This document shows, piece by piece, positions 603 through 29,691 of a DNA stretch of 30,050 bases. Below the pieces are notes generated by a model. That model saw only the letters and a list, made by a program, of their open reading frames with translations, was not told the DNA's origin and searched no databases. Origin of the DNA: Candidatus Omnitrophota bacterium (GTDB lineage Bacteria; Omnitrophota; Omnitrophia; Omnitrophales; Aquincolibacteriaceae); NCBI GenBank assembly GCA_041653795.1, contig JBAZER010000027.1:1-30050 (forward strand). Direction: 5' to 3'. Within the stretch, counting starts at the first letter, position 1. The number at the start of each line of letters is the position of its first letter. The translations under genes were made by a program, and so were the position numbers.

Positions 603-862
603 GCTCCCCTCCGGGGCAGGCCACCCGCACTTATAAACATGACTTTTGTCATGTTTATCGTCAAGTGCTCCCTTCAATTCCTCTCGACACGAAGGGGCCT
701 GGTTCTCAAACCAGGTCCCGACGTTGACGTAGGGCGAAATCCCTTGAAAGCCCACGTCATCGCACTTGTGCATTGAGCACAAGTGTCAACCCGAAGTAAA
801 GATCGCCCTAATGCAAAAAACGCATTAGGACAGACCATTTTGTTTACTCAAAAACAAAAATA

Positions 863-893
863 AAAGGCCTTCCAAAAAGGAAGGCCTTTTATT
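863..893. terminator. Bidirectional intrinsic terminator: AAAGGCCTTCC-aaaaa-GGAAGGCCTTT with T-runs on both sides (TTTTATT on plus, TTTTATTTTTG on minus); ends the tRNA-Pro transcript
   Basis: 11-bp perfect stem, 5-nt loop, flanking U-tracts in both orientations; lies 14 nt past the tRNA 3' end. Confidence 0.6.
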
Positions 894-906
894 CTGCGTA
901 ACAAAA

Positions 907-982
907 TGGTCGGGGTGAGAGGAATTGAACCTCCGACATCTTGCTCCCAAAGCAAGCGCTCTAGCCCCTGAGCTACACCCCG
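907..982 (-). tRNA. tRNA-Pro, anticodon TGG, CCA encoded
   Basis: The reverse complement folds as a canonical cloverleaf: acceptor CGGGGTG/CACCCCG, D-arm GCTC..GAGC, anticodon stem CTTGC/GCAAG with loop TTTGGGA, T-arm GGAGG-TTCAATT-CCTCT, discriminator A, then CCA. Confidence 0.85.
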
Positions 983-1061
983 ATGTATCCTATTTATAAA
1001 AAATCAATTGAAACATCGGGGTAGTCCTGATTTCCTTAGATTTTTTTAAACAGAAATCAGG
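978..1061. promoter_or_regulatory. tRNA-Pro upstream module. Hairpin 1 is CCCCGATGT...ACATCGGGG (978-1020), overlapping the tRNA 5' end and enclosing a TATAAA -10-like box. Hairpin 2 is CCTGATTTC-cttagatttttttaaaca-GAAATCAGG (1026-1061)
   Basis: Inverted repeats read directly; the same two-hairpin layout, sharing GATGTATCC[T/A]ATTTAT, is found upstream of tRNA-Glu. Confidence 0.45.
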
Positions 1062-1122
1062 GCACACCGACGTAAATGTTATTGTTATTGTATCGACGGA
1101 ACCCGCGGATGGCAAATGCTTC

Positions 1123-9505: not shown

Positions 9506-9650
9506 AATGCTTTCTCCTTTTGGTTTGAACCGAGTTCCCGTATCCGATGTCCCGGACCCGCGCCCACGGCCTTTACTGGGTTAGTATCATACAATACAGT
9601 TTCAAAGACGACAATAAAGCTTTTCTGTCCAAGTCTTTATTTCATTTGGT

Positions 9651-9800
9651 TAATGGTGACTTGGACTGCCCTGGTTACCCATTGATTTTTTCATGAGAAC
9701 CAAGGACTGTCCAGATCTCTTGTTTCTTTTTTATAATGGCGATCTGGACTGCCCTGATTACCCGTTGATTTTTGAATGAGAATCAGGAGCTGTTTCTGTT
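9651..9800. repeat. Two tandem ~70-bp repeats (9651-9725 and 9733-9800, ~85% identical) in the nrdR-SWIB spacer. Each contains a hairpin CC(C)TGRTT-[acccRttgattttt..atgag]-AAYCAGG, with a compensatory G:C to A:T change between the copies
   Basis: Read directly: arms 9669-9676/9698-9705 and 9752-9759/9781-9788. The single mismatch in copy a becomes a G-U wobble only in a minus-strand RNA. Confidence 0.5.
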
Positions 9801-17374: not shown

Positions 17375-18796
17375 TCATAGCTTGCAGCAATTCCTTTTAT
17401 GCTCCAGTTTATACTTGTCATCCGCATCATAGATTTTGGTCGGGTATTTCCCGGTAAAACATGCTGCGCAAAAGTCTTTCGGGTTTTGCGTCGTCGAACC
17501 AAGCATCCCCTCGAGACTCAGGTACCCGAGCGTATCCACGTTAAGGAATTTCATAATCTCCTCAATGCTTTTATTGGCCGCCAAAAGCTCTTTTTTCGAC
17601 GGAAAATCGATCCCGTAAAAACAGGGCGAAATGTGCGGCGGACAGCTGATCCTCATATGCACTTCCTTGGCGCCCGCACTCCTCAAAAGTTTCACGCGGT
17701 TCTTCGCCGTGTTCCCGCGCACGATCGAATCGTCGACCACAATCACTCGTTTGCCGTCCACGACCTGACGGATAGGGTTCAATTTGATCTTCACCTTGAG
17801 CTGGCGGCCCGCTTCTGAAGGACTAAGGAATGTGCGTCCGATATAGTGGTTACGGATGAAACCGTGCGAAAACGGTATCCCCGATTCCCTTGAATAGCCC
17901 AAGGCCGCAAAACTGCCTGAGTCCGGCACCGGGATCACGATGTCTGCGTCCACGGGATGTTCCCTGGCGAGCTGCCGGCCCAGTTTTTCACGCACAAGTC
18001 CCACGCTATCGTGAAAAATATTGGAATCCGGCCTGGCGAAATAGACGTGCTCAAAAATGCACTGCGCCTTGGCGATCTTTTCATCCTTAAAAGGAAAATG
18101 ACTGCGAAGCCCTTTACTGTCGATCACGACGACCTCGCCCGGCTCGATTTCGCGGACAAACTCCGCCTCGATCAGATCGAACGCGCAAGTCTCGGACGCA
18201 AGCACGTAACTCGGCCCTAATTTCCCGAGACAAAGAGGCCGGAACCCTTGCGGGTCGCGGACCCCGAACAAATGGTCCTCGGTCAGAAGAACCAGGCTGA
18301 ATGCACCTTTCGCGCGCTTTGCCGCCTCGATCACGCCTTCTTCATGAGAACGGTAGGATGGTTTGGCGATCATGTGCACAAAGACCTCGGAATCGATCGT
18401 GCTCCCGAAAATGGAGCCATAAGCCTCCAGCTCCGCGCGAAGGATCTGCGCATTCACAAGGTTCCCGTTATGCGCAATCGCGATCTGTCCGCGCGAATAA
18501 TCGACCTTGTAGGGTTGGGCGTTCAAAAGCGTCGAAGATCCGGTCGTGGAATAGCGCACATGGCCGATGGCGTTTTTCCCGGGGAGCTGCGCAAAAGAAG
18601 ATTCGTCGAACGCCTCACCCACATGCCCCATTTTCTTGACGAGATAAAGGTCAGAACTGTCGCTTGTGCAGATCCCGGCTGCTTCTTCGCCGCGATGCTG
18701 AAGCGCAAAAAGCCCGAGCTGTGTGATGCGCGCCGCCTGGGGATGATTGTAGATACCAAAGATGCCGCAATGATGCTTGATGTTTTCGCCGCTCAT
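17375..18796 (-). CDS. purF: Amidophosphoribosyltransferase. Start at the internal MSGENIKHHCGIFG (N-terminal Cys nucleophile); C-terminal Cys cluster of the Fe-S type
   Basis: Ntn-glutaminase CGIFG motif, PRTase domain; RBS GGAGAA upstream of the internal start. Confidence 0.9.
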   Translation of the reverse strand: MSGENIKHHCGIFGIYNHPQAARITQLGLFALQHRGEEAAGICTSDSSDLYLVKKMGHVGEAFDESSFAQLPGKNAIGHVRYSTTGSSTLLNAQPYKVDYSRGQIAIAHNGNLVNAQILRAELEAYGSIFGSTIDSEVFVHMIAKPSYRSHEEGVIEAAKRAKGAFSLVLLTEDHLFGVRDPQGFRPLCLGKLGPSYVLASETCAFDLIEAEFVREIEPGEVVVIDSKGLRSHFPFKDEKIAKAQCIFEHVYFARPDSNIFHDSVGLVREKLGRQLAREHPVDADIVIPVPDSGSFAALGYSRESGIPFSHGFIRNHYIGRTFLSPSEAGRQLKVKIKLNPIRQVVDGKRVIVVDDSIVRGNTAKNRVKLLRSAGAKEVHMRISCPPHISPCFYGIDFPSKKELLAANKSIEEIMKFLNVDTLGYLSLEGMLGSTTQNPKDFCAACFTGKYPTKIYDADDKYKLEHKRNCCKL

Positions 18797-18829
18797 AAGA
18801 ACTGTTCTCCATTTAATTTTAAAGGTTAA

Positions 18830-18875
18830 CAGTCCCAATACCTATCAATTTCAGCTTTGCTGAAATTGGGGCTGT
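18830..18875. promoter_or_regulatory. Nested dyad element AGTCCCAAT-acctat-CAATTTCAGC-ttt-GCTGAAATTG-GGGCT, 35 bp upstream of purF; a second copy is at 25391-25434
   Basis: 10-bp perfect inner inverted repeat plus an outer 9-bp imperfect one; not followed by a T-run on either strand. Confidence 0.4.
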
Positions 18876-18945
18876 CCAAACTGCCTTATTGGAAAAGAAA
18901 CCGAAAGTTTGGGCTGTACTAATACCGCAAACCCTCAAAATTTAT

Positions 18946-19045
18946 ATGCGTTGCTCCAGTTATTCCCTCCTGTAGGGCACATTTAAATGTGCCCTACGGA
19001 AGAGAGGATAGAGCGAATATCTCTCAGGAAACCGGAACAATGCAT
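18946..19045 (+). mobile_element. MITE copy 1 (100 bp). Imperfect ~16-bp TIRs (ATGCGTTGCTCCAGTT / AACCGGAACAATGCAT), a central 26-bp perfect palindrome GTAGGGCACATTTAAATGTGCCCTAC, and a 5-bp TSD TTTAT (18941-18945 and 19046-19050). Sits between purF and purL
   Basis: Three near-identical copies in the window, each with its own 5-bp direct duplication. Confidence 0.65.
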
Positions 19046-19063
19046 TTTATATAAAATGCGGTA

Positions 19064-21331
19064 TTATTTTCGTTCCATGATATTGGGAATCGTGTTTTCG
19101 AAAAGTTTCACCATGTTCCCGACTGTCAGCCGGATCCGGTCTCCCAGGATGAGCGTGTCTCCGCCTACCTTACCGATTTCGTAAAGTGCAACCCCCTGTT
19201 TCTGCGCCAAATTCCTGATGTCCTTTTGATGCTCGGGCGTGACCGAGATTACCACACGTGACTGACTTTCGCCGAAATAAAGTGCATCCGCACGAAGTTC
19301 CTTTTGATCTTTCAAAACACCGTCAAGACCGTTCACCACAGCACCCAAGCCGCCGGCGCTCTTGATGCAACATTCGGCAAGCGCAACCGCAAGCCCGCCC
19401 TCGGAAAGATCATGACAGGAAACGATTTTTTTTCCGTCTGCGGCGGCAAGGATGAATTGATGAAGCGCCTTTTCGCGCGCGAGGTCAAGGCGCGGCGGCA
19501 GGCCCTGCTTCAATCCGTGCTCGATCATCAGGTAGTGGCTCCCGCCAAGTTCATTGAACGTTTCGCCCGCGAGAAAAATAATATCATCAGCATTCTGGAA
19601 CGCCGACGGGACGCGTTTTTCGATATTCTCCAAAAGACCCACCATGCCGATCGTGGGCGTCGGATAGATGGCGCCCTGCGGGCTCTCGTTATAGAAGCTG
19701 ACGTTCCCGCCTGTCACCGGGATCTCAAGCGCCTTGCAGGATTCGATAATCCCGGAGACGGCGCTATGAAATTGCCAGAAAATCTCGGGTTTCATGGGAT
19801 TGCCGAAATTAAGACAATTTGTCACACCGACCGGCCGTGCGCCGGAACAGACGACGTTACGCGCCGCTTCCGCAACGGCGATTTTTCCGCCCTCGAACGG
19901 ATCGAGATAAACATAAAGACTGTTGCAATCGGTCGAGACCGCAATTCCTTTTTGTGTTCCCTTGATGCGGATGAGCGCAGCGTCATGTCCCGGATAAAAG
20001 ACCGTGTCCGTACGGACCATGTGGTCGTACTGTTGCCAAACCCAGGCCTTGGAAGCAATCGAAGGATCTGAGAGCAGTCGCTTGAGTACGTCACTGAAAT
20101 TCTCGGGCTCGGAAATTACGGCAAGATCAAGTTTTTGCGCTTCGGCAAGGTAGGCCGGCTTTTCTTCTTCACGCATATAAACTGGCCCGTCATCCGCAAG
20201 CGCTTTGGCCGGGATCTCCGCGGCCATTTTTCCCCCGTCCAGCACGCGATATTTGTCACCCCGGGTCACTTCGCCGATCTTTACGGCATGAAGGTCCCAT
20301 TTCGTGAAAATGTCCTCGACCTCTTTTTCCTTTCCTTTTTTGACAATGACCAGCATGCGCTCCTGCGATTCCGAAAGCAGGGTTTCATAGGGGGTCATTC
20401 CGGGCTCGCGGCGCGGCACTTTTGCGAGATCGATCTCGACCCCGGTGCTTGCGCGGGACGCGGTCTCGCAACCTGCACAGGTCAGGCCCGCGGCGCCCAT
20501 ATCCTGCATACCCACAAGCGCGTCGGTCCTGAGAAGCTCCAGACACGCTTCCATCAAAAGTTTTTCCATAAACGGATCACCCACTTGCACGGCCGGGCGG
20601 TCCTCATGACTTTGTTCCGAGAGCTCTTTGGAAGCGAATGCCGCGCCGCCAAGTCCGTCACGGCCGGTCGTGGCTCCCACATAATAAACCGGATTGCCGA
20701 TGCCGTGCGCCGCGCCGCGCACGATCTCATCTTTTTGGATGATCCCGAGCGCCATCGCATTCACCAGGGGATTTCCTTCATAAGCAGCATCAAAATAGAT
20801 ATCGCCTCCGACGGTCGGAATGCCCATGCAATTACCGTAATGCGCGATCCCTGCGACCACCCCGCGGAAAAGCCGCTGACTCACCGGCTGCGCGAGATCC
20901 CCGAACCGGAGAGAATTCATTAAAAGGACCGGCCGCGCGCCCATGGTGAAAATATCCCGGAGAATGCCGCCCACGCCCGTTGCCGCACCCTGGAAGGGCT
21001 CGATCGCCGACGGATGGTTATGACTTTCGATCTTGAAACACACCGCAAGACCGTCGCCGATATCCACGATCCCGGCATTCTCCTGTCCCGGTTTCACGAG
21101 CAGGTGCTCCTGACGCGGGAGTTCCGCATTCATTTTGGAAAAGAGCTTGAGGATGGACTTGGAATTCTTATAAGAGCAATGCTCGCTCCACATCACGCTG
21201 AACATCCCGAGTTCTGTGATGTTGGGGTCCCGGCCGAGAATGTCCCGGATATGTTGAAACTCTTCCGGCGTGATTCCGTGCGCCGCGATTAATTCCGAAG
21301 TGATAGGTGTCGTCGAATCCAGTACCGGCAT
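19064..21331 (-). CDS. purL: Phosphoribosylformylglycinamidine synthase subunit PurL (FGAM synthase II)
   Basis: 755 aa, two PurM-like repeats, typical small-PurL N-terminus (...[12 protein letters not shown]...). Confidence 0.9.
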
Positions 21332-21334
21332 AAT

Positions 21335-22024
21335 TTATTCCAGTGCGTTTGAGATGCTTTCGAAAATCCTGCGTCCGTCCGAAGAGCCGAGGAGGTCTTC
21401 ACTCGACCGCTCCGGATGCGGCATCATGCCCAGGACGTTCTTTTTCCTGTTCACGATGCCCGCGATGTGGTCCCTGGAACCGTTCGGGTTGAACTCTTCC
21501 CCGAGCTTCCCGTCCTCGGACGAATAACGAAAAACGACCTGGGAGTGGTCATGGAGGGACTTCAGCGTATCATCATCGCAATAATAATTCCCTTCGCCGT
21601 GCGCGATGGGAACACAAAGTGTCTCGCCCGGTTCCATCTGACCGGTAAAAATCGTCAGGTTCTCTTCCGTGCGGATCCAGGTGTGCTTGCAGATAAATTC
21701 CAGCGTTTTGTTCCGAAGCATCGCGCCCGGCAAGAGCCCGGCCTCCAGAAGGATCTGGAATCCGTTGCAGATCCCGATCACGGCCCGGCCGTCATTGGCG
21801 TGTTTGATCACCGATTCCATGACGGGAGAAAAGCGCGCGATCGCGCCGGTCCTGAGATAATCGCCGTAGCTGAACCCCCCGGGAATAACCACCAGATCCA
21901 CTTTGGGAAGGCTCCGGTCCTTGTGCCAGACATATTTCACAGGCACTTTGACGACGTCCTTAAGCGCATGGAAACAATCCGTATCGCAATTGGAACCCGG
22001 AAATACAATGACCGCGGCTTTCAT
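21335..22024 (-). CDS. purQ: Phosphoribosylformylglycinamidine synthase glutaminase subunit PurQ
   Basis: Class I glutamine amidotransferase with [14 protein letters not shown]... start; 229 aa. Confidence 0.9.
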
Positions 22025-22052
22025 GACTTTGAGATTTCCTTTTAAAAGCTTC

Positions 22053-22120
22053 CGTCATTGCGAGGAGTCCCGCCGACGGCGGAGCGACGCGGCAATCTCT
22101 CTCTACAAAAACGAGATTGC
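22053..22120. repeat. Short repeat CGTCATTGCGAGGA-[GC hairpin]-GGCAATCTC with a GCAATCTC/GAGATTGC hairpin; a related copy is at 26961-27033. Both lie just upstream of a MITE copy
   Basis: 14-bp and 9-bp identical blocks separated by different self-complementary GC stretches (CCGCCGACGGCGG vs CCTGCGAAGCAGG). Confidence 0.3.
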
Positions 22121-22159
22121 TTTCCGCCAGAGGCGGACACAAACTCGCAATAACACATT

Positions 22160-22259
22160 ATGCATTGTTCCGGTTTCCTGAGAGATATTCGCTCTATCCT
22201 CTCTTCCGTAGGGCACATTTAAATGTGCCCTACAGGAGGGAATAACTGGAGCAACGCAT
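22160..22259 (-). mobile_element. MITE copy 2 (100 bp, inverted orientation, identical to copy 1), TSD ACATT (22155-22159 and 22260-22264). Lies in the purQ-purS spacer
   Basis: Exact reverse complement of copy 1, flanked by a 5-bp direct repeat. Confidence 0.65.
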
Positions 22260-22270
22260 ACATTCTTTGT

Positions 22271-22528
22271 TTATGAAGGCACTTCTTGAATTTCGAATGA
22301 ATACTCTTCGATCACAGGATTATGAAGCAGCTTGTCGCACATGACGTGAATACATTCCTCCGCCTTTGTACGGTCGTCCGCTTCAAGCGCCAGCTCGAAA
22401 TACTTTCCGATCCGCAGGCTCTTTGCCTCTTTGAACCCCAGGGACTCGAGCGCGTGAAGCGTCGTTTGTCCCTGCGGGTCCAGGACCGATTTTTTTAAAC
22501 TGGTATGAATTCTTGCTGTAAATTTCAT
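22271..22528 (-). CDS. purS: Phosphoribosylformylglycinamidine synthase subunit PurS. Start at the internal MKFTARIH; the listed ORF runs to 22591
   Basis: 85-aa PurS fold sequence (…LDPQGQTTLHALESLGF…). Confidence 0.85.
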   Translation of the reverse strand: MKFTARIHTSLKKSVLDPQGQTTLHALESLGFKEAKSLRIGKYFELALEADDRTKAEECIHVMCDKLLHNPVIEEYSFEIQEVPS

Positions 22529-22613
22529 GTCGATCAACCCTCTTTCGTGTAGTTCGAATCTTCCCGCCTGGGACTGGGCCCCATTATTCAACGGCGGTAT
22601 GTTTTTTTAACTT

Positions 22614-23534
22614 CTAGCTTCGGATATCTTTTCCAGACAGACGTTTATAAATCTCACAATAGGCTTCGGTGGTTTTTTCGATGATATCGCCTGGAAGCTC
22701 CGGCGCGGGCGGGCGCTTGTCCCACGAGAGCGTCTCGAGATAATTCCTCACGATCTGTTTGTCGAAGCTCGTCTGGTCATGACCGGTCTCATATTGGTCA
22801 GCCGGCCAAAAACGAGAACTGTCCGGCGTCAGAATCTCGTCGATCAATATTATCTTTCCATCATGGATCCCAAATTCAAATTTTGTATCCGCAATGATGA
22901 TCCCTTTCGACGCCGCGTATTCCTGGCCTTTCTTGTAGAGAAGAATAGAAAGGTCCTTGGCCTGCTGGGCGATGTCTTTGCCCACGATCCGGATCGCTTC
23001 GCTGAAATCGATATTGATATCATGCCCGGTCTTCGCCTTCGTGGACGGGGTGAAGATCGGTTCCGGGAATTTCTGGCACTGTTTCATCCCGGGCAAAAGC
23101 GTGTGCCCGCAAACCTTGCCCGTCTTCAAATAATCTTTCCAACCAGACCCGGTAATGTAACCCCGCACCACGCATTCAATCGCAAGCGGCTTGGCCCGTT
23201 TCACGAGCACCGAACGCCCGGTCAGTTCATGACGAAAGTTAGCGACCACCTCTTTCGGCAAACCCATCGCGTCCACATCCGCGGTGATCAGGTGCTGCGG
23301 GAGAACATCTTTGAAATATTCGAGCCAGAAAAGCGTGATCTGGTTGAGCACTTTTCCCTTCATCGGGATCGGGTCAGGCATCACCACGTCAAAAGCACTC
23401 AGCCGATCGGTCGTCACGATCAGAAGCTTATCGGAACCCACGCCGTAGATATCACGCACCTTTCCGGCCGCTACACGCGGCAGAGGCAGATGCGTTTCCA
23501 GGATCGCTTCGTTCCTGTCAAGATCACTGAACAT
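22614..23534 (-). CDS. purC: Phosphoribosylaminoimidazole-succinocarboxamide synthase (SAICAR synthetase)
   Basis: 306 aa long-form PurC with GKVRDIY motif. Confidence 0.9.
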   Translation of the reverse strand: MFSDLDRNEAILETHLPLPRVAAGKVRDIYGVGSDKLLIVTTDRLSAFDVVMPDPIPMKGKVLNQITLFWLEYFKDVLPQHLITADVDAMGLPKEVVANFRHELTGRSVLVKRAKPLAIECVVRGYITGSGWKDYLKTGKVCGHTLLPGMKQCQKFPEPIFTPSTKAKTGHDINIDFSEAIRIVGKDIAQQAKDLSILLYKKGQEYAASKGIIIADTKFEFGIHDGKIILIDEILTPDSSRFWPADQYETGHDQTSFDKQIVRNYLETLSWDKRPPAPELPGDIIEKTTEAYCEIYKRLSGKDIRS

Positions 23535-23559
23535 ATTTTGGTTCCCTTATTTCTTTTTC

Positions 23560-25002
23560 TTAAAAATGAACCTTACGCACTTCGTTTCGTAAGCTCTTTT
23601 TACGTATCATCCCAGAAAAAGACTGGCCTGGTTTATACGTGACCCCTTTATCGGTAACCGTTGATGCATACAAAAAATCTTTTAAAACCCTTCGTTTCGA
23701 AAACATTTCAATTCCCGTACGTTTCAGAATGACCGGCACATTCTTGAGGTGTCTGTCATAGCTGAAAACCGCGCGGATCTCCTGGGGCGTCAGGACTTTC
23801 AAGATCTTCTCGTCTTTCAGCACCACCTGCTCCAGGTAAAGCTTTTCATCTTCCCAAAGCTTCCTGGCCGCATCCTGCACAAGCTTGTAGCCTTCCTCGC
23901 GCGTCAAGCCCTTCTCCACGAGGGCAAGAAGCAGGCTTTGCGAAAACACCATTCCGCGGCTCGACTCCAGATTCTTGAGCATGCGGTCCTTATTGACCAC
24001 GAGGTTCTCGATCACGTTCTGCATGAGCCCAAGCATGTAATCAAGGAGGATCGTGCTGTCGGGGAAAATGACGCGCTCGACGGAAGAATGCGTGATGTCC
24101 CGCTCGTGCCAAAGTGCGATATTCTCAAAACCCGCGAGCGCGTTCCCGCGAAGAATGCGCGAAAGTCCTGCCACACGTTCGCAGGTGATCGGGTTGCGCT
24201 TATGCGGCATGGCTGAGGAACCTTTCTGCCCTTTTGAAAAAAATTCCTGCACTTCAAAAATCTCTGTCCTCTGAAGACCCCGGATCTCGGTCGCAAGTTG
24301 TTCGAGCGTTCCACCAACAATTGCGATTGCACCAAGATATTCCGCATGACGGTCGCGCTGAAGGACCTGCGTCGAAACCGGCGCCGGGTTCAGCCCGAGC
24401 TTCTTGCAGACAAATTCTTCGACCCTGGGATCCACATTTGCAAAAGTCCCGACTGCGCCTGAGATCTTGCCATAGCGAAGATTTTCTTTGGCGGCCTCAA
24501 GACGCACGAGGCCCCGTTTACATGCGGCATGGAAAAGCGCCATCTTGAGCCCGAACGTGATAGGTTCGGCATGCACGCCGTGCGAGCGCCCCACCATAAG
24601 GGTACGGGCATGTTCTTTGGCTTTTTTGCCGAGAAGGGAGATAAGTTTTTTCAGTTCGCGGATAAGGATATCCGAGGCTTCCTGGACCTGGAGCGAAAGC
24701 CCGGTATCCAGAACATCTGATGAGGTCAGTCCAAAGTGGACGTAGCGGCCGGCAGGGCCGGCGTTCTCGGAAATATTGGTAAGAAAAGCAATGACGTCGT
24801 GATTGACGACCTTTTCGATCTCTTTGACTCGTTCAATGTCGAATTTCGCCCGTGCACGGACTTTGGCGGGAACATCTTTGGGGATATAGCTGTAACGTGC
24901 AAGGCCCTCAAGCGCGGCCAGTTCCACCTCAAGCCACTTTTGGAGCTTGTTCTCTTCCGTCCAGACCTTCGCCATTTCCTGGCGTGTGTAACGAGAGATC
25001 AT
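23560..25002 (-). CDS. purB: Adenylosuccinate lyase. Start at the internal MISRYTRQEMAKVW with RBS AAGGAAGGTGG; carries a ~50-aa basic C-terminal extension beyond the usual PurB end
   Basis: Fumarate-lyase/PurB signature (...SSAMPHKRNP...); start codon 33 nt downstream of the tRNA-Glu 3' end. Confidence 0.9.
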   Translation of the reverse strand: MISRYTRQEMAKVWTEENKLQKWLEVELAALEGLARYSYIPKDVPAKVRARAKFDIERVKEIEKVVNHDVIAFLTNISENAGPAGRYVHFGLTSSDVLDTGLSLQVQEASDILIRELKKLISLLGKKAKEHARTLMVGRSHGVHAEPITFGLKMALFHAACKRGLVRLEAAKENLRYGKISGAVGTFANVDPRVEEFVCKKLGLNPAPVSTQVLQRDRHAEYLGAIAIVGGTLEQLATEIRGLQRTEIFEVQEFFSKGQKGSSAMPHKRNPITCERVAGLSRILRGNALAGFENIALWHERDITHSSVERVIFPDSTILLDYMLGLMQNVIENLVVNKDRMLKNLESSRGMVFSQSLLLALVEKGLTREEGYKLVQDAARKLWEDEKLYLEQVVLKDEKILKVLTPQEIRAVFSYDRHLKNVPVILKRTGIEMFSKRRVLKDFLYASTVTDKGVTYKPGQSFSGMIRKKSLRNEVRKVHF

Positions 25003-25035
25003 CTTGTGTCCACCTTCCTTATGGCCCACAACCAA

Positions 25036-25113
25036 TGGTAGCGCTAACGGGATTTAAACCCGTGTTTCTGCCTTGAGAGGGCAGCGTCCTAGATCAGGCT
25101 AGACGATAGCGCC
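25036..25113 (-). tRNA. tRNA-Glu, anticodon CUC, CCA encoded. The T-loop is unusual (TTTAAAT) and the D-loop has no GG
   Basis: Reverse complement GGCGCTATCGTCTAGCCTGATCTAGGACGCTGCCCTCTCAAGGCAGAAACACGGGTTTAAATCCCGTTAGCGCTACCA. 7-bp acceptor, Glu-like D-arm (TCGTCTAG...AGGAC), anticodon stem CTGCC/GGCAG with loop CTCTCAA. Confidence 0.7.
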
Positions 25114-25363
25114 CTGATGTATCCAATTTATTTTCCCACATGGCTACATTAGGGCTGCACTGATTTCTCGATTCTTTTCTCAATAGAAAATCAGGCGCCC
25201 TGATGGACCTATTCAATCAGGCGCCATACAAACACGGGGCCTGTCAGAAACTAACCAACGATTGAAAACTGATTACGCCCTGATGGATCCAATTCATTTT
25301 TCCAATGGCTCCATTAGGGCTGCATTGATTTCCCGATTCATTTCTATATGGAAAATCAAGCGG
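25109..25363. repeat. Two tandem ~88-bp units (25109-25197 and 25275-25363, ~85% identical) directly upstream of tRNA-Glu. Each has hairpin 1 GCCCTGATGKA...TMCATTAGGGC and hairpin 2 YTGATTTCYC...RGAAAATCAR. A diverged middle segment also starts CGCCCTGATGG
   Basis: Read directly. Three compensatory base-pair changes between the two copies; G-U wobbles appear only in the plus-strand RNA sense. Confidence 0.6.
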
Positions 25364-25390
25364 GGGGATTGAAAATCCTTCAAACAAGTC

Positions 25391-25434
25391 CAGTCCCAAT
25401 TCTTTTCAATTTCAAAAAATCTGAAATTGGGGCA
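25391..25434. promoter_or_regulatory. Second copy of the nested dyad: CAGTCCCAAT-tcttt-TCAATTTCA-aaaaatc-TGAAATTG-GGGCA. Lies upstream of the tRNA-Glu/purB transcription unit
   Basis: Same outer and inner arms as 18830-18875, but a different loop sequence and length. Confidence 0.4.
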
Positions 25435-25566
25435 GCCCTCGTCACCATTCAAAAAACAAAGACAAGGGCAGTATAGCTTTGCCCCTATAGGATGTCAACG
25501 GAACTAGTCCCGGTCACCTTAAATTCAGCAAAAGTCGGGGCGATCGAACGACGCGGAAAGACAATA

Positions 25567-25845
25567 CTAGAACTTTCGATCAACCTTGTCCTTCAGGTCG
25601 TACACGGACTTCTCAAGCATTTTCACACGCTCGGACATGAACCGATTTGCCTGCTCCAGATCCGCGACGCGCCGTTCAAGTCTGTCCGCACGGTCCTGCC
25701 TGAGAGTCTTCTCCATATCGGCGAATTCCGTCGAAGTTCCACTCATCCCCGTCCCCGCCGCTTCGTCCTCGACCGCCCACGAAAGTGAGAATACGATCGA
25801 AAAAAACAGCACCCCTAAAATTGAAATTGCTGCGAGTTTTTTCAT
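25567..25845 (-). CDS. Small secreted coiled-coil protein (signal peptide MKKLAAISILGVLFFSIVFSLSWA, then about 65 aa of heptad repeats); Lpp-like in size but has no lipobox Cys
   Basis: Read from the translation; internal start chosen at MKKLAAIS. Confidence 0.45.
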   Translation of the reverse strand: MKKLAAISILGVLFFSIVFSLSWAVEDEAAGTGMSGTSTEFADMEKTLRQDRADRLERRVADLEQANRFMSERVKMLEKSVYDLKDKVDRKF

Positions 25846-25963
25846 AGGAGTCACCTCGAGCGGAGTATATCATAATTATAAAAGACGGGGAACGCAAAAC
25901 GGGAAACGCTGAACGCCAACGCTTTTTCGTTACCCGTTAACCGTTCCCCGAGCCCCGAGGCGT

Positions 25964-26887
25964 TTAGCCTCGAGGATGGAATTTCGCGTGAACGGACTTG
26001 AGGCGGTTTCCGGAAACATGCGTATAGATCTGTGTCGTGGAGATATCGGAATGACCGAGGAGCTCCTGCACGACGCGCAGGTCCGCGCCGCGTTCCAGCA
26101 GGTGCGTCGCAAAAGAATGGCGAAACGTGTGGGGTGTGATTGTTTTGGTGATGCCGGCAAGCCGCGCGTATTTTTTGATCATCTGCCATACAAATTGACG
26201 CGTCAGCCCCTTCCCGCTCCTGCCCAGAAAAAAATGATCCGTCCTGGTCTTCAATTTTGAACGGAACCTGGCAAGATAAGTCTGGCAAGCGGAGACCGCA
26301 ACACTTCCGAGCGGCACGAGCCGCTCCTTGTCACCCTTGCCGCGGCACTTGATGAACTTGTTATCCAGATACACATGCTCCGCCGTGAGCTCCGTGATCT
26401 CGGAGACCCGCATCCCGGTCGCGTAAAGGCATTCCAGAAGCGCCAGGTCGCGTATTCCCCCGGGCTTTTTGACGTCCGGCATCTTGAGAAGAGAGTCCAT
26501 CTCCTGTGCGGTCAAAAAGTGCGGCAGCTTTTTCCAGAGCTTCGGCGACTCAAGGACGCTTGTGATATCGCTTGGAACATAGCGTTCTTTGGCGAGAAAA
26601 CGGTGGAAAAGCTTGACCGAGACAAGCCCGCGTGCGATCGAGGAAGATTCGAGTCCGCGCCTGCTTTCCGCATTCAGGAATTTCAGGATGTGCGTCCGCG
26701 AGACCTTGCTCCAGTCCGAGACCTTTTCTTTTTTGAGGAATACGTCGTAGCGCACAAGGTCCTGCCGGTAAGCGTCGAGCGTGTTCTGCGCCAGTCCTTT
26801 TTCCACGGAGAGATAATTCAGGAACTCTTCAAAGAGGGACTGGTTCTTGTCCCTGGGTTTTTCCGGAGTCACCGCTGTTGTATCCAT
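25964..26887 (-). CDS. xerD: Tyrosine site-specific recombinase of the XerC/XerD type (most XerD-like)
   Basis: 307 aa; conserved R..H..R..Y catalytic C-terminus ...LLGHSDISTTQIYTHV...; the N-terminal core-binding domain aligns along its length with XerD. Confidence 0.8.
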   Translation of the reverse strand: MDTTAVTPEKPRDKNQSLFEEFLNYLSVEKGLAQNTLDAYRQDLVRYDVFLKKEKVSDWSKVSRTHILKFLNAESRRGLESSSIARGLVSVKLFHRFLAKERYVPSDITSVLESPKLWKKLPHFLTAQEMDSLLKMPDVKKPGGIRDLALLECLYATGMRVSEITELTAEHVYLDNKFIKCRGKGDKERLVPLGSVAVSACQTYLARFRSKLKTRTDHFFLGRSGKGLTRQFVWQMIKKYARLAGITKTITPHTFRHSFATHLLERGADLRVVQELLGHSDISTTQIYTHVSGNRLKSVHAKFHPRG

Positions 26888-27123
26888 CGCTTCTGGTATC
26901 GGCTAAACAACCCCAGGACTAGAGACTAAGAACCAAGAGCCTATCCTGATAACAATGTTGCGTCATTGCGAGGAACCTGCGAAGCAGGGACCGTGGCAAT
27001 CTCGTTTTTTTCGTTCTTGTAGAAAAAGATCGCTACGCCCTCTTCTCCGCCAAAGGACGGATTCGTCCGACGCCTTGTGGCGAAGGGGCCCGCGATGACA
27101 AATTGAAATCTGGAGAACTTAAA

Positions 27124-27223
27124 ATGCGTTGCTCCAGTTATTCCCTCCTGTAGGGCACATTTAAATGTGCCCTACGGAAGAGAGGATAGAGCAAATATCT
27201 CTCAGGAAACCGGAACAATGCAT
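27124..27223 (+). mobile_element. MITE copy 3 (100 bp, 1 mismatch to copy 1), TSD TTAAA (27119-27123 and 27224-27228). Sits between xerD and the flavoprotein gene
   Basis: Same TIRs and palindrome; flanked by a 5-bp direct repeat. Confidence 0.65.
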
Positions 27224-27232
27224 TTAAAGTTT

Positions 27233-28208: not shown

Positions 28209-28375
28209 CTATTCTTCTACAATTACCGCGAAGCCTTTTTCCACCAACTGTTGATTGACATAAACCCCGTTCACAAACACGTCAGCCAGGTAGCGGTCGT
28301 ACTTGCACTCGCGCCCTAATGTCCCGAGTACTACCCGGCGAGTTTTGGACAACTCGTCCTGGGTTGTCCGACTTG
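28209..28375 (-). pseudogene. Truncated duplicate of the 3' end of the neighbouring nuclease gene (encodes ...KYDRYLADVFVNGVYVNQQLVEKGFAVIVEE*). It has no start codon and lacks a ~75-bp segment present in the intact gene
   Basis: Translating the minus strand gives 31 aa nearly identical to the C-terminus of the 28390..29691 product; DNA blocks CCCGAGTACT and GGCGAGTTTTGGACAACTCG are repeated. Confidence 0.5.
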
Positions 28376-28389
28376 TTGCTGGCTCCAGA

Positions 28390-29691
28390 TTATTCCGCTA
28401 CTTTGACAGCGTAGCCTTCATCGAGCAGTTTTTGGTTCACGTACACACTGCTCACAAAAACATCCGCCAAGTAGCGGTCGTATTTATCTGACTTCACGGT
28501 TTTGATGAGGATCGGCGAATTTTTTCCAAGCATCTTCTCAAGCGCCTTCTTCGCTCCCATGCCGTCCGCCGTCGCGATCTCAGGCGCGTCAATTCCGCGC
28601 AGGCGAAGCTTTTGGACTGTCCGGAACCCGAAACCGAGATCCACAACAGCCTTGATCGTGTCGCCATCAATGACTTCGAGGACTTTGATTTCATAAGTAT
28701 ACCCGGGCTCAGTAGCCCGAGTACTGCCCGTCTCGACTTTTGCCTTCTCTTTATAAATGGCAGTCGGGACGGCCCCAATCTCCGCTGCGCTACGATTGAT
28801 AGGTATTGAGACCGGCGAGTTTTGGACAACTCGCCCGGGGCTGTAAAGCTCTAGGGAATATTTCCCATTTGGGTCTTGAGAGGAGGTGACGACATCCCCT
28901 TCTTTGAAGGCCTTTGTGTCGGCCACGACTTCTGACAGTCGAAGGTAATTCGAGAACCCAAGATCGAGGACTCGCTCACTTTCTTCAGTACCGCAGACTA
29001 CGCGGTACGTGTGCGGAATGCCGGGTTTGGCCGTGAGTTTGGCTTCTTTTTTTGGGACTTGCATCCCATTTCTTGCGGCTTTGCGCTTTCTTACTTCGGC
29101 ACGAACTTGATCCTGCGTCCAGTTCTCCTTCGCTGCTTTTTCTTCCAGCTCGGCACGTTCATCAGGGTCATTCACGGAAAGGAGTGTTTCATAGTTGGCC
29201 CAGCTTAATTTTCCGGGCGCCCGGAAATTCGGGTAAGTGCGGGCGAACTGAAGCATGTAGTAGAGCTCGGTATCACTCATACCCAGATCTTTGGATAATC
29301 TTAAGATCACCTGTTTGCCGTAATCGGCGCGCTCTTTGTGCTGAAGCACATGCGCATCAATGAGTCTGCCGATCTCCCAGGCCTCACGCACGCGTTCCTG
29401 TTCCACGGCCTTCTCGACACGGGCACGGCTCTCAGTCCGCGCCCCGCGAATCGCAGTAAGTAATTGATCATAAGTTCCAACTTTGGTCGCGGACACTGTA
29501 GACGATTGCCCCAAATCGTCACTGCGTCGTGCCTGTTCACCGCGTTTTTCAGCGGTCCCTGTGGGATTGCGAACAGGCGAAGTTTGAACCTGCGCCGCAA
29601 ACCCCAAGGAAACACACTGGAAGAATAGAAGGAAGGAAATAACTGCAAGCCTAGCCACATCACGAATCAACATAGGTCTATAACCTTTCAA
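28390..29691 (-). CDS. Secreted or membrane-anchored two-domain nuclease. It has an N-terminal hydrophobic signal/anchor, a YhcG_N (DUF1016)-like domain (LSWANYETLL..NDPDER...ENWTQDQV) and a C-terminal staphylococcal/thermonuclease (SNase) domain (VIDGDTIKAV...LRLRGIDAPE...DKYDRYLADV)
   Basis: Motif-level matches to the N-terminal domain of the YhcG family and to the SNase catalytic region; 433 aa. Confidence 0.7.
   Translation of the reverse strand: MKGYRPMLIRDVARLAVISFLLFFQCVSLGFAAQVQTSPVRNPTGTAEKRGEQARRSDDLGQSSTVSATKVGTYDQLLTAIRGARTESRARVEKAVEQERVREAWEIGRLIDAHVLQHKERADYGKQVILRLSKDLGMSDTELYYMLQFARTYPNFRAPGKLSWANYETLLSVNDPDERAELEEKAAKENWTQDQVRAEVRKRKAARNGMQVPKKEAKLTAKPGIPHTYRVVCGTEESERVLDLGFSNYLRLSEVVADTKAFKEGDVVTSSQDPNGKYSLELYSPGRVVQNSPVSIPINRSAAEIGAVPTAIYKEKAKVETGSTRATEPGYTYEIKVLEVIDGDTIKAVVDLGFGFRTVQKLRLRGIDAPEIATADGMGAKKALEKMLGKNSPILIKTVKSDKYDRYLADVFVSSVYVNQKLLDEGYAVKVAE

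Follow-up and report, generated by a model that had tools for sequence, protein, structure and literature searches.

Candidatus Omnitrophota are uncultured, often ultra-small bacteria. In a 30,050-nt stretch of one such genome (contig JBAZER010000027.1 of assembly GCA_041653795.1, positions 1–30,050; "the window" below), two similar hairpin-forming units, here called R1 and R2, lie 5′ of the gene for tRNA-Glu(CUC). [quoted passage not shown] This hairpin repeat, which is scattered through the genomes of this Candidatus Omnitrophota group, is most likely a small selfish element. We propose that the family has spread across a single Candidatus Omnitrophota clade, entering intergenic DNA, tRNA leaders, a tRNA 3′ end and in-frame sites within genes.

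Read on the tRNA-sense (minus) strand, each unit consists of hairpin 2 (arms CCUGAUUUUC..GAAAUCAG), a short linker and hairpin 1 (arms GCAGCCCUAAUGUAGCC..GGAUACAUCAGGGCGC). A repeat search matched 25105–25138 to 25271–25304 (85% identity) and 25140–25197 to 25305–25362 (86%), defining two minus-strand modules of ~91 bp each at 85–86% identity: R1 (25109–25199, with hairpin 2 at 25157–25199 and hairpin 1 at 25109–25158) and R2 (25275–25365, with hairpin 2 at 25323–25360 and hairpin 1 at 25276–25323), which score 104 and 103 bits, respectively, against the covariance model described below. The tRNA-Glu gene itself, also on the minus strand, occupies 25036–25113 (ARAGORN, Rfam), and the repeated unit takes in its first 5–9 nt (GGCGCTATC in R1, GGCGTAATC in R2), so that the 3′ arm of hairpin 1 of R1 holds tRNA-Glu nucleotides +1 to +3, or up to +5 with a bulge. 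On either strand, both units fold far better than shuffled sequence (z-scores −3.2 to −4.5). When the two are aligned, six substitutions fall in stems without breaking a single pair, and the remaining five differences are at loop positions. Two changes are double and compensatory: at the foot of hairpin 2 a C-G pair becomes U-A, and in hairpin 1 a U-A pair becomes G-C. The C.A and U.G combinations of R1 are both C-G pairs in R2, each through a single pair-repairing change. The original prediction, which had proposed two ~85%-identical units here with paired changes in both stems, is borne out on these points. The G-T combination that it noted in hairpin 1 is likewise real; RNA of the plus strand would have a G.U there, and RNA of the minus strand an A.C.

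That prediction had also called the units tandem. The duplication stands, but the head-to-tail arrangement does not, because 77 bp separates R1 from R2. This interval is made up of a 32-bp, internally deleted mini-copy, R′ (25194–25225, minus strand; GGCGCCTGATTGAATAGGTCCATCAGGGCGCC), in which the left and right ends of the module are joined and pair with each other (−15.5 kcal/mol, z-score −3.0), and 49–50 bp of older leader (25226–25274, minus strand; ..AGTTTTCAATCGTTGGTTAG..CCCCGTGTTT..), whose sequence is kept in relatives and upstream of which R2 has its insertion point. R′ was also found in L009, L023, L008 and L002 (L numbers denote related loci). A decayed tRNA in the spacer was considered and rejected: ARAGORN and Rfam were empty there, and the spacer is accounted for by the ancestral leader and the deleted mini-copy. 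The joining of R′ to R1 (25190–25204, minus strand) gives rise to a small G+C hairpin (ATCAGGGCGCCTGAT) with TTTCTATT after it, which a scan flagged as terminator-like; this could attenuate read-through into tRNA-Glu.

The wider distribution of the module was established in a comparison set of ~35 related Candidatus Omnitrophota contigs. Eight copies were used to build a covariance model, and its search of the window and 33 related loci (554 kb) returned 23 copies at E<0.003, so that homologues supporting the covariation do exist beyond R1 and R2. The sites of these copies are of at least five unrelated kinds. They were found in the tRNA-Glu leaders of nine relatives (L002, L004, L008, L009, L014, L015, L016, L021 and L023), in the leaders of tRNA-Pro(UGG) in the window and of tRNA-Pro(CGG) in L001 and L012, and at positions unconnected with a tRNA (window 9625–9791, L003:9050, L010:2741, L011:8385, L015:6148 and L012:519). 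When metagenomes were scanned for the 3′ arm of hairpin 1, nine loci emerged. These included further tRNA-Glu and tRNA-Pro(UGG) leaders and a fourth tRNA, tRNA-Pro(GGG) in L090, together with two loci, L086 and L088, in which the module directly precedes the start codon of an oppositely oriented protein-coding gene and is flanked, in L086, by an 11-bp direct repeat, CATCAGGGCAC. A match in L089 was discarded as a chance match within a coding repeat. The module had no match at E≤0.01 in 47 unrelated or distantly related contigs (~0.9 Mb), and viral contigs had no match to its 3′ arm. Rfam gave no match at the gathering threshold or at E≤10 beyond the two tRNAs, and the best non-tRNA Rfam matches in 24950–25600 had E values of ~1 or more, far below gathering scores.

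The window itself holds several further members. Two tandem modules lie on the minus strand at 9625–9791 (9709–9791 and 9625–9708), in intergenic DNA downstream of nrdR; they are 78% identical, with compensated stems. Between purL and purF, at 18826–18917 on the plus strand, a hairpin of a different sub-family (X-type) is followed by a hairpin of hairpin-1 type, and the same combination, X-type plus hairpin-1-type, is present on the minus strand at 28725–28817, in frame in the linker of a gene with DUF1016_N and SNase domains. Across the family, the hairpins measure 35–48 nt, with stems of 9–13 bp and A/T-rich loops of 15–23 nt.

Comparison between relatives revealed sites that are filled in some genomes and empty in others. 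The clearest case is a recombinase gene (25964–26887) that is syntenic in all relatives and whose Xer-like product has Phage_integrase and SAM-like Pfam domains. In L010 (2741–2827), L011 (8385–8471) and L015 (6148–6233), a two-hairpin module of 84 bp is inserted in frame near the N-terminus, after about codon 17, adding 28 codons and flanked by the direct repeat AGGACAAG; in the window, at the equivalent position (~26835), and in L023, L009 and L003, the site is empty (..GGACAAG/AACCAG..). Similarly, purL and purF abut in most relatives, are separated by ~225 bp of repeats in the window, and carry subsets of these repeats in L023 and L005. In the gene for the DUF1016_N and SNase protein (28390–29691, minus strand), the window alone has ~40 extra linker residues when compared with four homologues; the insert (~28725–28844) leaves the reading frame open and is a hairpin pair nested in a further short repeat, CCGGCGAGTTTTGGACAACTCG, that recurs at 28335–28367. 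Finally, in L090 (580–664) the 3′ end of tRNA-Pro(GGG) carries a second module, in inverted orientation, and the 3′ acceptor strand of the tRNA serves as one of its hairpin arms. Its flanking 10-bp direct repeat, CGCCCCGATT, is the complement of the ATCGGGGCG present at 5′ insertion sites, which indicates that a sequence is recognised as such, and not a tRNA 5′ end by its function.

The direct repeats that flank these copies range from 3 bp (28725–28817), 4–6 bp (9625–9791) and 5 bp (at the outer ends of the tRNA-Glu array) to 8 bp in the recombinase gene, 9–12 bp at tRNA-Pro and 11 bp in L086. They have in common a C-R-G-G-R-C-like core, seen at independent sites as CAGGGCGC, CAGGGCAC, CGGGGCGT, CAGGACAAG and TGGACAG, and the downstream copy always ends the 3′ arm of hairpin 1. 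Since the repeats vary in length between 3 and 12 bp and match the 3′ hairpin arm of the element, they point to homology-guided insertion rather than to a fixed staggered cut. In its strongest form, this would make the module a cargo-less mini-element that homes by a match between its own hairpin arm and its target, a proposal that we regard as rather doubtful. The 5′ arm of hairpin 1 would then act as a guide, being a complement of the insertion site that the element brings with it, and the target would become the 3′ arm; this would account for landing at acceptor-stem ends, on either strand, in tRNA-Pro and tRNA-Glu, for the duplication of the first tRNA nucleotides and for the variable repeat lengths. 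If this were true, a tRNA precursor with its 5′ acceptor strand locked in a hairpin and a decoy on its 3′ strand would represent a new form of maturation modulation.

The same architecture, in which a core direct repeat and an insert are followed by a hairpin with the core at the end of its 3′ arm and the complement of the core as its 5′ arm, could also be taken to mean that the hairpins are recombination sites recognised as folded DNA, in the manner of integron attC or the attP of CTX phage. A tyrosine recombinase would then insert a mini-cassette without cargo where the chromosome matches the module's 3′ arm, and the candidate enzyme would be the Xer-like gene at 25964–26887, 850 bp upstream. 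The C-R-G-G-R-C motif common to the cores at independent sites, the use of the same sequence for insertion on either strand of tRNA-Pro, and the position of a Phage_integrase and SAM-like recombinase gene next to the array are all in keeping with this. However, that gene has the same position in all relatives, module-free ones included, as expected of a housekeeping XerC/D, and its synteny is independent of the modules, so that no link to mobilisation emerges. Xer and IntI sites accommodate two recombinase monomers over ~28 bp, for which stems of 9–13 bp are too short. In addition, the GTTRRRY core is absent, one site has a repeat of only 3 bp, and no circular intermediate or cargo was seen. 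We therefore consider site-specific recombination of this kind quite unlikely, and prefer an interspersed repeat.

Base-pairing is clearly maintained across the family. In an alignment of the 23 copies that was fitted to the model, which by itself inflates pairing somewhat, 89.1% of stem cells form standard pairs, compared with 35.6–45.4% when the 3′ partners are slid by one to three columns. Changes on both sides were observed for 23 of the 25 pairs, and the covariation score was 0.42, against 0.07–0.11 in the slid controls, with none of 500 shuffles reaching the observed values. This extends to 23 members the pairing conservation that the original prediction had read from R1 and R2. Because the module is dispersed and polymorphic for presence and absence, however, this pairing is better explained by selection at the level of the element, or by recent copying, than by a dedicated regulatory RNA of tRNA-Glu.

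Which strand would carry such a structure also bears on the suggestion, made in the original prediction, of a leader or an antisense RNA. An antisense RNA would be read from the plus strand across 25100–25440, and the plus-strand G.U (minus-strand A.C) in hairpin 1 of the tRNA-Glu copies favours it. This G.U is real but is outweighed by the remaining evidence. The two strands fold with practically the same energies (−29.0 vs −29.1 and −31.7 vs −31.2 kcal/mol), so that energy does not discriminate between them, and the wobble pairs in hairpin 2 of the same copies fall on the minus strand. The family-wide count, at 49 G.U to 24 A.C on the tRNA-sense strand, also favours minus. Together with the lack of a plus-strand promoter in a sigma-70 scan of 24900–25900 and of any Rfam match, this makes a plus-strand antisense RNA highly implausible, while the other half of the suggestion, that the units lie in a leader, very probably holds, as set out below. 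A hammerhead ribozyme suggested by the motif CTGATGA was rejected, since the motif is an arm of a perfect hairpin, most copies read CTGATGT, CTGATGG or CTAATG, and Rfam gave no match.

The sigma-70 consensus scan of the same region found a single minus-strand site, TTGACA-17-TATACT at 25470–25498, which matches the consensus at 11 of 12 positions and lies upstream of all units; within R1 and R2 it found no -35/-10 pair at 16–18 bp spacing. Of 29 related tRNA-Glu leaders, 25 have a recognisable form of this promoter, and the distance from its -10 box to the tRNA follows the content of the leader: 83 nt in the hairpin- and module-free L019 and L020, 110–212 nt where there is a single small hairpin or a single module, and 356–365 nt in the window, L023 and L087. 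Relatives that share promoter and tRNA carry zero, one or two full copies. Since the promoter is conserved upstream and its distance to the tRNA is set by the intervening units, the units are insertions in a leader and not promoters. The leader that contains them is very probably transcribed, to judge from the position of this promoter, which likely drives a single transcript of leader, tRNA-Glu and purB, whose start lies 33 nt downstream of the tRNA on the same strand.

We propose that the copies at tRNA-Glu landed between this conserved promoter and the tRNA, and that the ~350-nt leader carrying them is transcribed and then, most probably, discarded at the RNase P cut at tRNA +1. Copy number at the locus probably shifts between relatives by recombination between the flanking direct repeats CATCAGGGCGC, in which case R2, R′ and R1 would be the present state of the array in this genome.

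These observations also bear on the idea, raised in the original prediction, that R1 and R2 are duplicated tRNA promoter modules (P1 and P2). The module does stand upstream of four different tRNA genes, and an A/T-rich, TAAATT-like sequence precedes tRNA +1 by 11–16 nt in the Glu and Pro copies. But no -35-like hexamer accompanies it at proper spacing, no sigma-70-like site was found inside the units, and the strong site lies upstream of them. Moreover, module-free relatives retain that upstream promoter at 83 nt, and the module also occurs in coding sequence and, inverted, 3′ of a tRNA. A promoter duplication is accordingly very improbable. The TAAATT in the loop of hairpin 1 was dropped as a promoter candidate for want of a -35 partner, and because the sequence is missing in module-free relatives.

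Between promoter and R2 lie two more hairpins, both on the plus strand and hence antisense to the tRNA. The first, a single hairpin with a loop of hairpin-1 type (GCCCTCGTC..GACAAGGGC; 25435–25469), directly follows the -10 box and has homologous copies in L003 and L009. The second (GTCCCAAT..ATTGGGGC; 25393–25433) belongs to the X-type sub-family; it is 77% identical to 18830–18877 and is present in the leaders of L003, L009, L015 and L016. The hairpin after the -10 box had been considered as an intrinsic terminator of the upstream gene, and was rejected as such, being an antisense hairpin-1-type repeat that overlaps the start of the leader. Separately, ~60 nt of the tRNA-Glu leader (..TCTCCCCGCAACTTGTTTTTCAATCGTGGGTTAG..CCCGTGTTT; window 25226–25275, L001–L020) is conserved down to ~83% PurB identity, and RNAalifold predicts no consensus pairs in this segment.

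The architecture seen at tRNA-Glu recurs before tRNA-Pro(UGG) (907–982, minus strand; ARAGORN, Rfam), as the original prediction had stated. Here the module (975–1066, minus strand; 70 bits) has hairpin 2 at 1026–1062 and hairpin 1 at 977–1022, with folding z-scores of −5.5 and −7.0. Nucleotides +1 to +6 of the tRNA are part of ACAUCGGGGU, the 3′ arm of hairpin 1, and the upstream copy of the direct repeat, ACGTCGGTGTG, lies at 1063–1073. A sigma-70-type promoter, TTGCCA-17-TACAAT (1087–1115, minus strand), is again found upstream of the module.

An alternative with a role for the host builds on this overlap between hairpin 1 and the tRNA end. The modules would be cis-acting structures in the leader RNA by which the folding of tRNA-Glu and tRNA-Pro, and their cleavage by RNase P, are delayed or regulated. 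Hairpin 1 would sequester the 5′ acceptor strand, the upstream copy of the tRNA 5′ end would pair with the 3′ strand, and an element that was at first mobile may have been co-opted afterwards. We consider this possible, although much less probable than a selfish repeat. The overlap is found at tRNA-Glu and tRNA-Pro(UGG) and equally at tRNA-Pro(cgg) and tRNA-Pro(ggg), and in tRNA leaders the upstream direct repeat amounts to a decoy copy of the tRNA 5′ end. In the minimum-free-energy folds that RNAfold predicts for module plus tRNA, it is the decoy (GGCGC for Glu, GUCGGUGUG for Pro) that takes up the 3′ acceptor strand, the true 5′ end being held in hairpin 1, and this fold is more stable than an enforced cloverleaf, at −54.0 vs −51.6 kcal/mol for Glu (2.4 apart) and −62.3 vs −56.5 kcal/mol for Pro (5.8 apart). 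An effect of the module on tRNA maturation is, on these predictions, possible.

Several further observations weigh against the selfish-element interpretation, some of them by favouring the same host role. The orientation is tRNA-sense in all four kinds of tRNA leader, with hairpin 1 always pairing the first 3–6 tRNA nucleotides. Pairing of hairpin 1 is preserved in orthologous tRNA-Glu leaders by compensatory change (the position concerned is A.C in the window, A-U in L015 and G-C in L014 and L021), and hairpin 1 of tRNA-Pro(cgg) in L004 and L001 pairs on the sense strand alone, through five and three G.U pairs. Constant orientation, kept pairing and sense-only G.U pairs would equally be expected if the RNA served the host in tRNA maturation, and the 49:24 excess of G.U over A.C points the same way. 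The covariation, too, has to be read with the model-fitted alignment in mind, since the fit inflates pairing to some extent. On the side of the element itself, no transposase or other mobilising gene was identified in the window or related loci, and copy number per genome and active mobility are accordingly inferred from these contigs. The direct repeats also vary in length, unlike classical target-site duplications, and the terminal inverted repeats are short and imperfect (GGCGCCTGAT / ATCAGGGCGC) rather than long.

Nevertheless, the module is dispensable. No hairpin lies beside tRNA-Glu in L005, L010, L019 and L020, or at tRNA-Pro(cgg) in L017 and L019, and an element that is absent from several close relatives is not required. 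It is also found in coding sequence, ahead of an oppositely oriented gene and, in inverted form, at the 3′ end of a tRNA. In the minimum-free-energy fold of the full 428-nt Glu leader, a normal cloverleaf is already present, both strands fold equally well, and the 2:1 bias towards G.U, like the sense-only G.U pairs at tRNA-Pro(cgg), can be explained by C-to-T mutation of the free 5′ arm opposite a constrained tRNA arm. Taken together, these data favour a selfish interspersed repeat, copies of which lie in tRNA leaders.

Turning to the surroundings of these sites, the tRNA-Glu gene heads a purine-biosynthesis cluster on the minus strand (17375–25035) that comprises purB, a SAICAR synthetase gene (purC) and genes for a purQ-like glutamine amidotransferase, a purL-like protein of the AIR-synthase family and purF, and the whole cluster appears to be served by the single conserved promoter at 25498–25470. 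PurB is 94–97% identical to that of several Candidatus Omnitrophota metagenome-assembled genomes, and the synteny of tRNA-Glu(ctc) and purB extends to 31 loci. A 95-aa coiled-coil protein, encoded between the recombinase gene and the tRNA-Glu promoter (25567–25854, minus strand), is conserved in relatives and has a weak Pfam match to bZIP_1, below the family cut-off. At the other end of the window, a contig of the same region ends 178 nt after rodA, near the tRNA-Pro copy, which may be an assembly break at the repeat. Partial tRNA-Pro-like sequences, running from the 5′ acceptor arm to the anticodon or T arm, were seen in L001 (~330–560) and L090 (~830–1050, minus strand), upstream of intact tRNA-Pro(cgg) and tRNA-Pro(ggg), respectively, and are followed by 100–150 nt of G+C-rich structured sequence; these may be what recombination or integration at tRNA-Pro has left behind.

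A second repeat family is present in the window as a 110-bp element at 18938–19047 and 27116–27225 (96% identical), with an inverted partial copy at 22200–22241. It is centred on a perfect palindrome, CTGTAGGGCACATTTAAATGTGCCCTACGG, and flanked by (T/C)ATATAAA, so that it resembles a MITE in its own right, with a duplication of 8 bp; its copy between purL and purF is absent from L023, the closest relative. Just downstream of the SNase-domain gene, 28210–28304 is 73% identical over 95 nt to the 3′ end of that gene (28391–28485), which suggests a truncated duplicate of the gene's end.

A repeat that sits in tRNA leaders, separates pur genes that otherwise abut and adds 28–40 in-frame residues to proteins affects the annotation of metagenome-assembled genomes, and its behaviour warns that strong covariation does not by itself identify a host regulatory RNA. 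It also raises the questions of how an 85-bp element without a transposase finds matches to its own hairpin arm, and whether a tRNA matures differently when its first nucleotides are locked in a leader hairpin.

Our full-text searches of the Omnitrophota literature found no relevant paper on repeats. The known systems compared here are elements of other bacteria. The module resembles MITEs in being short (~85 bp), non-coding, multi-copy and dispersed with a preference for intergenic DNA, and in having flanking direct repeats, presence/absence polymorphism, stable stem-loops if transcribed, and insertions of copies into one another. It differs in consisting of two hairpins side by side, in the shortness and imperfection of its end complementarity, seen as the stem of R′, in flanking repeats that are not of fixed length and resemble its own 3′ arm, and in that no parent insertion sequence was identified in the window or related loci.

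With integron attC sites, the module shares a short core direct repeat that bounds the insert, a 5′ arm that is the complement of the core with a 3′ arm completed by the target, and a structure better conserved than the sequence. In contrast to attC, its cores are C-R-G-G-R-C-like and not GTTRRRY, its stems are much shorter, it has no cargo gene, and no IntI-type integrase was identified, the neighbouring recombinase having XerC/D-like domains. The 178-bp repeats at E. coli tyrT (rtT) are likewise arranged in tandem beside a tRNA, carry a terminal piece of it, and are co-transcribed and removed by processing. However, rtT lies 3′ of the tRNA, duplicates its 3′ end and is confined to one locus, whereas the module belongs to a dispersed hairpin family.

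Like REP sequences, their composite bacterial interspersed mosaic elements (BIMEs) and REPINs, which are linked to RAYT transposases, the module takes the form of short hairpin repeats. These cluster in intergenic DNA of operons that is transcribed, or in the case of the module probably so, with sub-families that differ by compensated stem changes and with copy numbers that vary between strains. REPs are 20–40 bp long and G+C-rich, with small loops and a GTAG or CGTC tag (PMC3733652). The module instead has A/T-rich loops of 15–23 nt, no such tag at the foot of its stems, and units in the same rather than alternating orientation; no RAYT gene was seen in the DNA at hand, and a Pfam scan of 10 window proteins found no transposase.

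The BOX elements of Streptococcus pneumoniae are built of several hairpin-forming sub-units, lie in transcribed intergenic regions and form clusters with other small repeats (PMC10969869, PMC3184786). The module is similarly modular, with a variable number of tandem sub-units in intergenic locations that are probably transcribed, and it too clusters with other small repeats, but BOX belongs to another lineage, has a fixed A-B(n)-C order and is not associated with tRNA ends, and we claim no relationship in sequence. RPEs insert in frame into protein genes without destroying them and are also found in non-coding DNA (PMC10969869). The module's insert of 84 bp (28 codons) in the recombinase gene and of ~40 aa in the nuclease gene recall this, although RPEs are 105–150 bp long and restricted to Rickettsia, and copies of the module are mostly non-coding. 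Reviews covering elements of the MITE, REP/BIME, BOX and RPE kinds (PMC3184786, PMC10969869) provide the frame for this comparison. Because the module departs from MITEs in lacking a fixed duplication and clear terminal inverted repeats, from REPs in its tag and loops and from attC in its core, it can be placed in this broad class of small hairpin-forming repeats but in no named family within it. The best-supported conclusion is that the two-hairpin repeats of Candidatus Omnitrophota constitute an undescribed, lineage-specific family.

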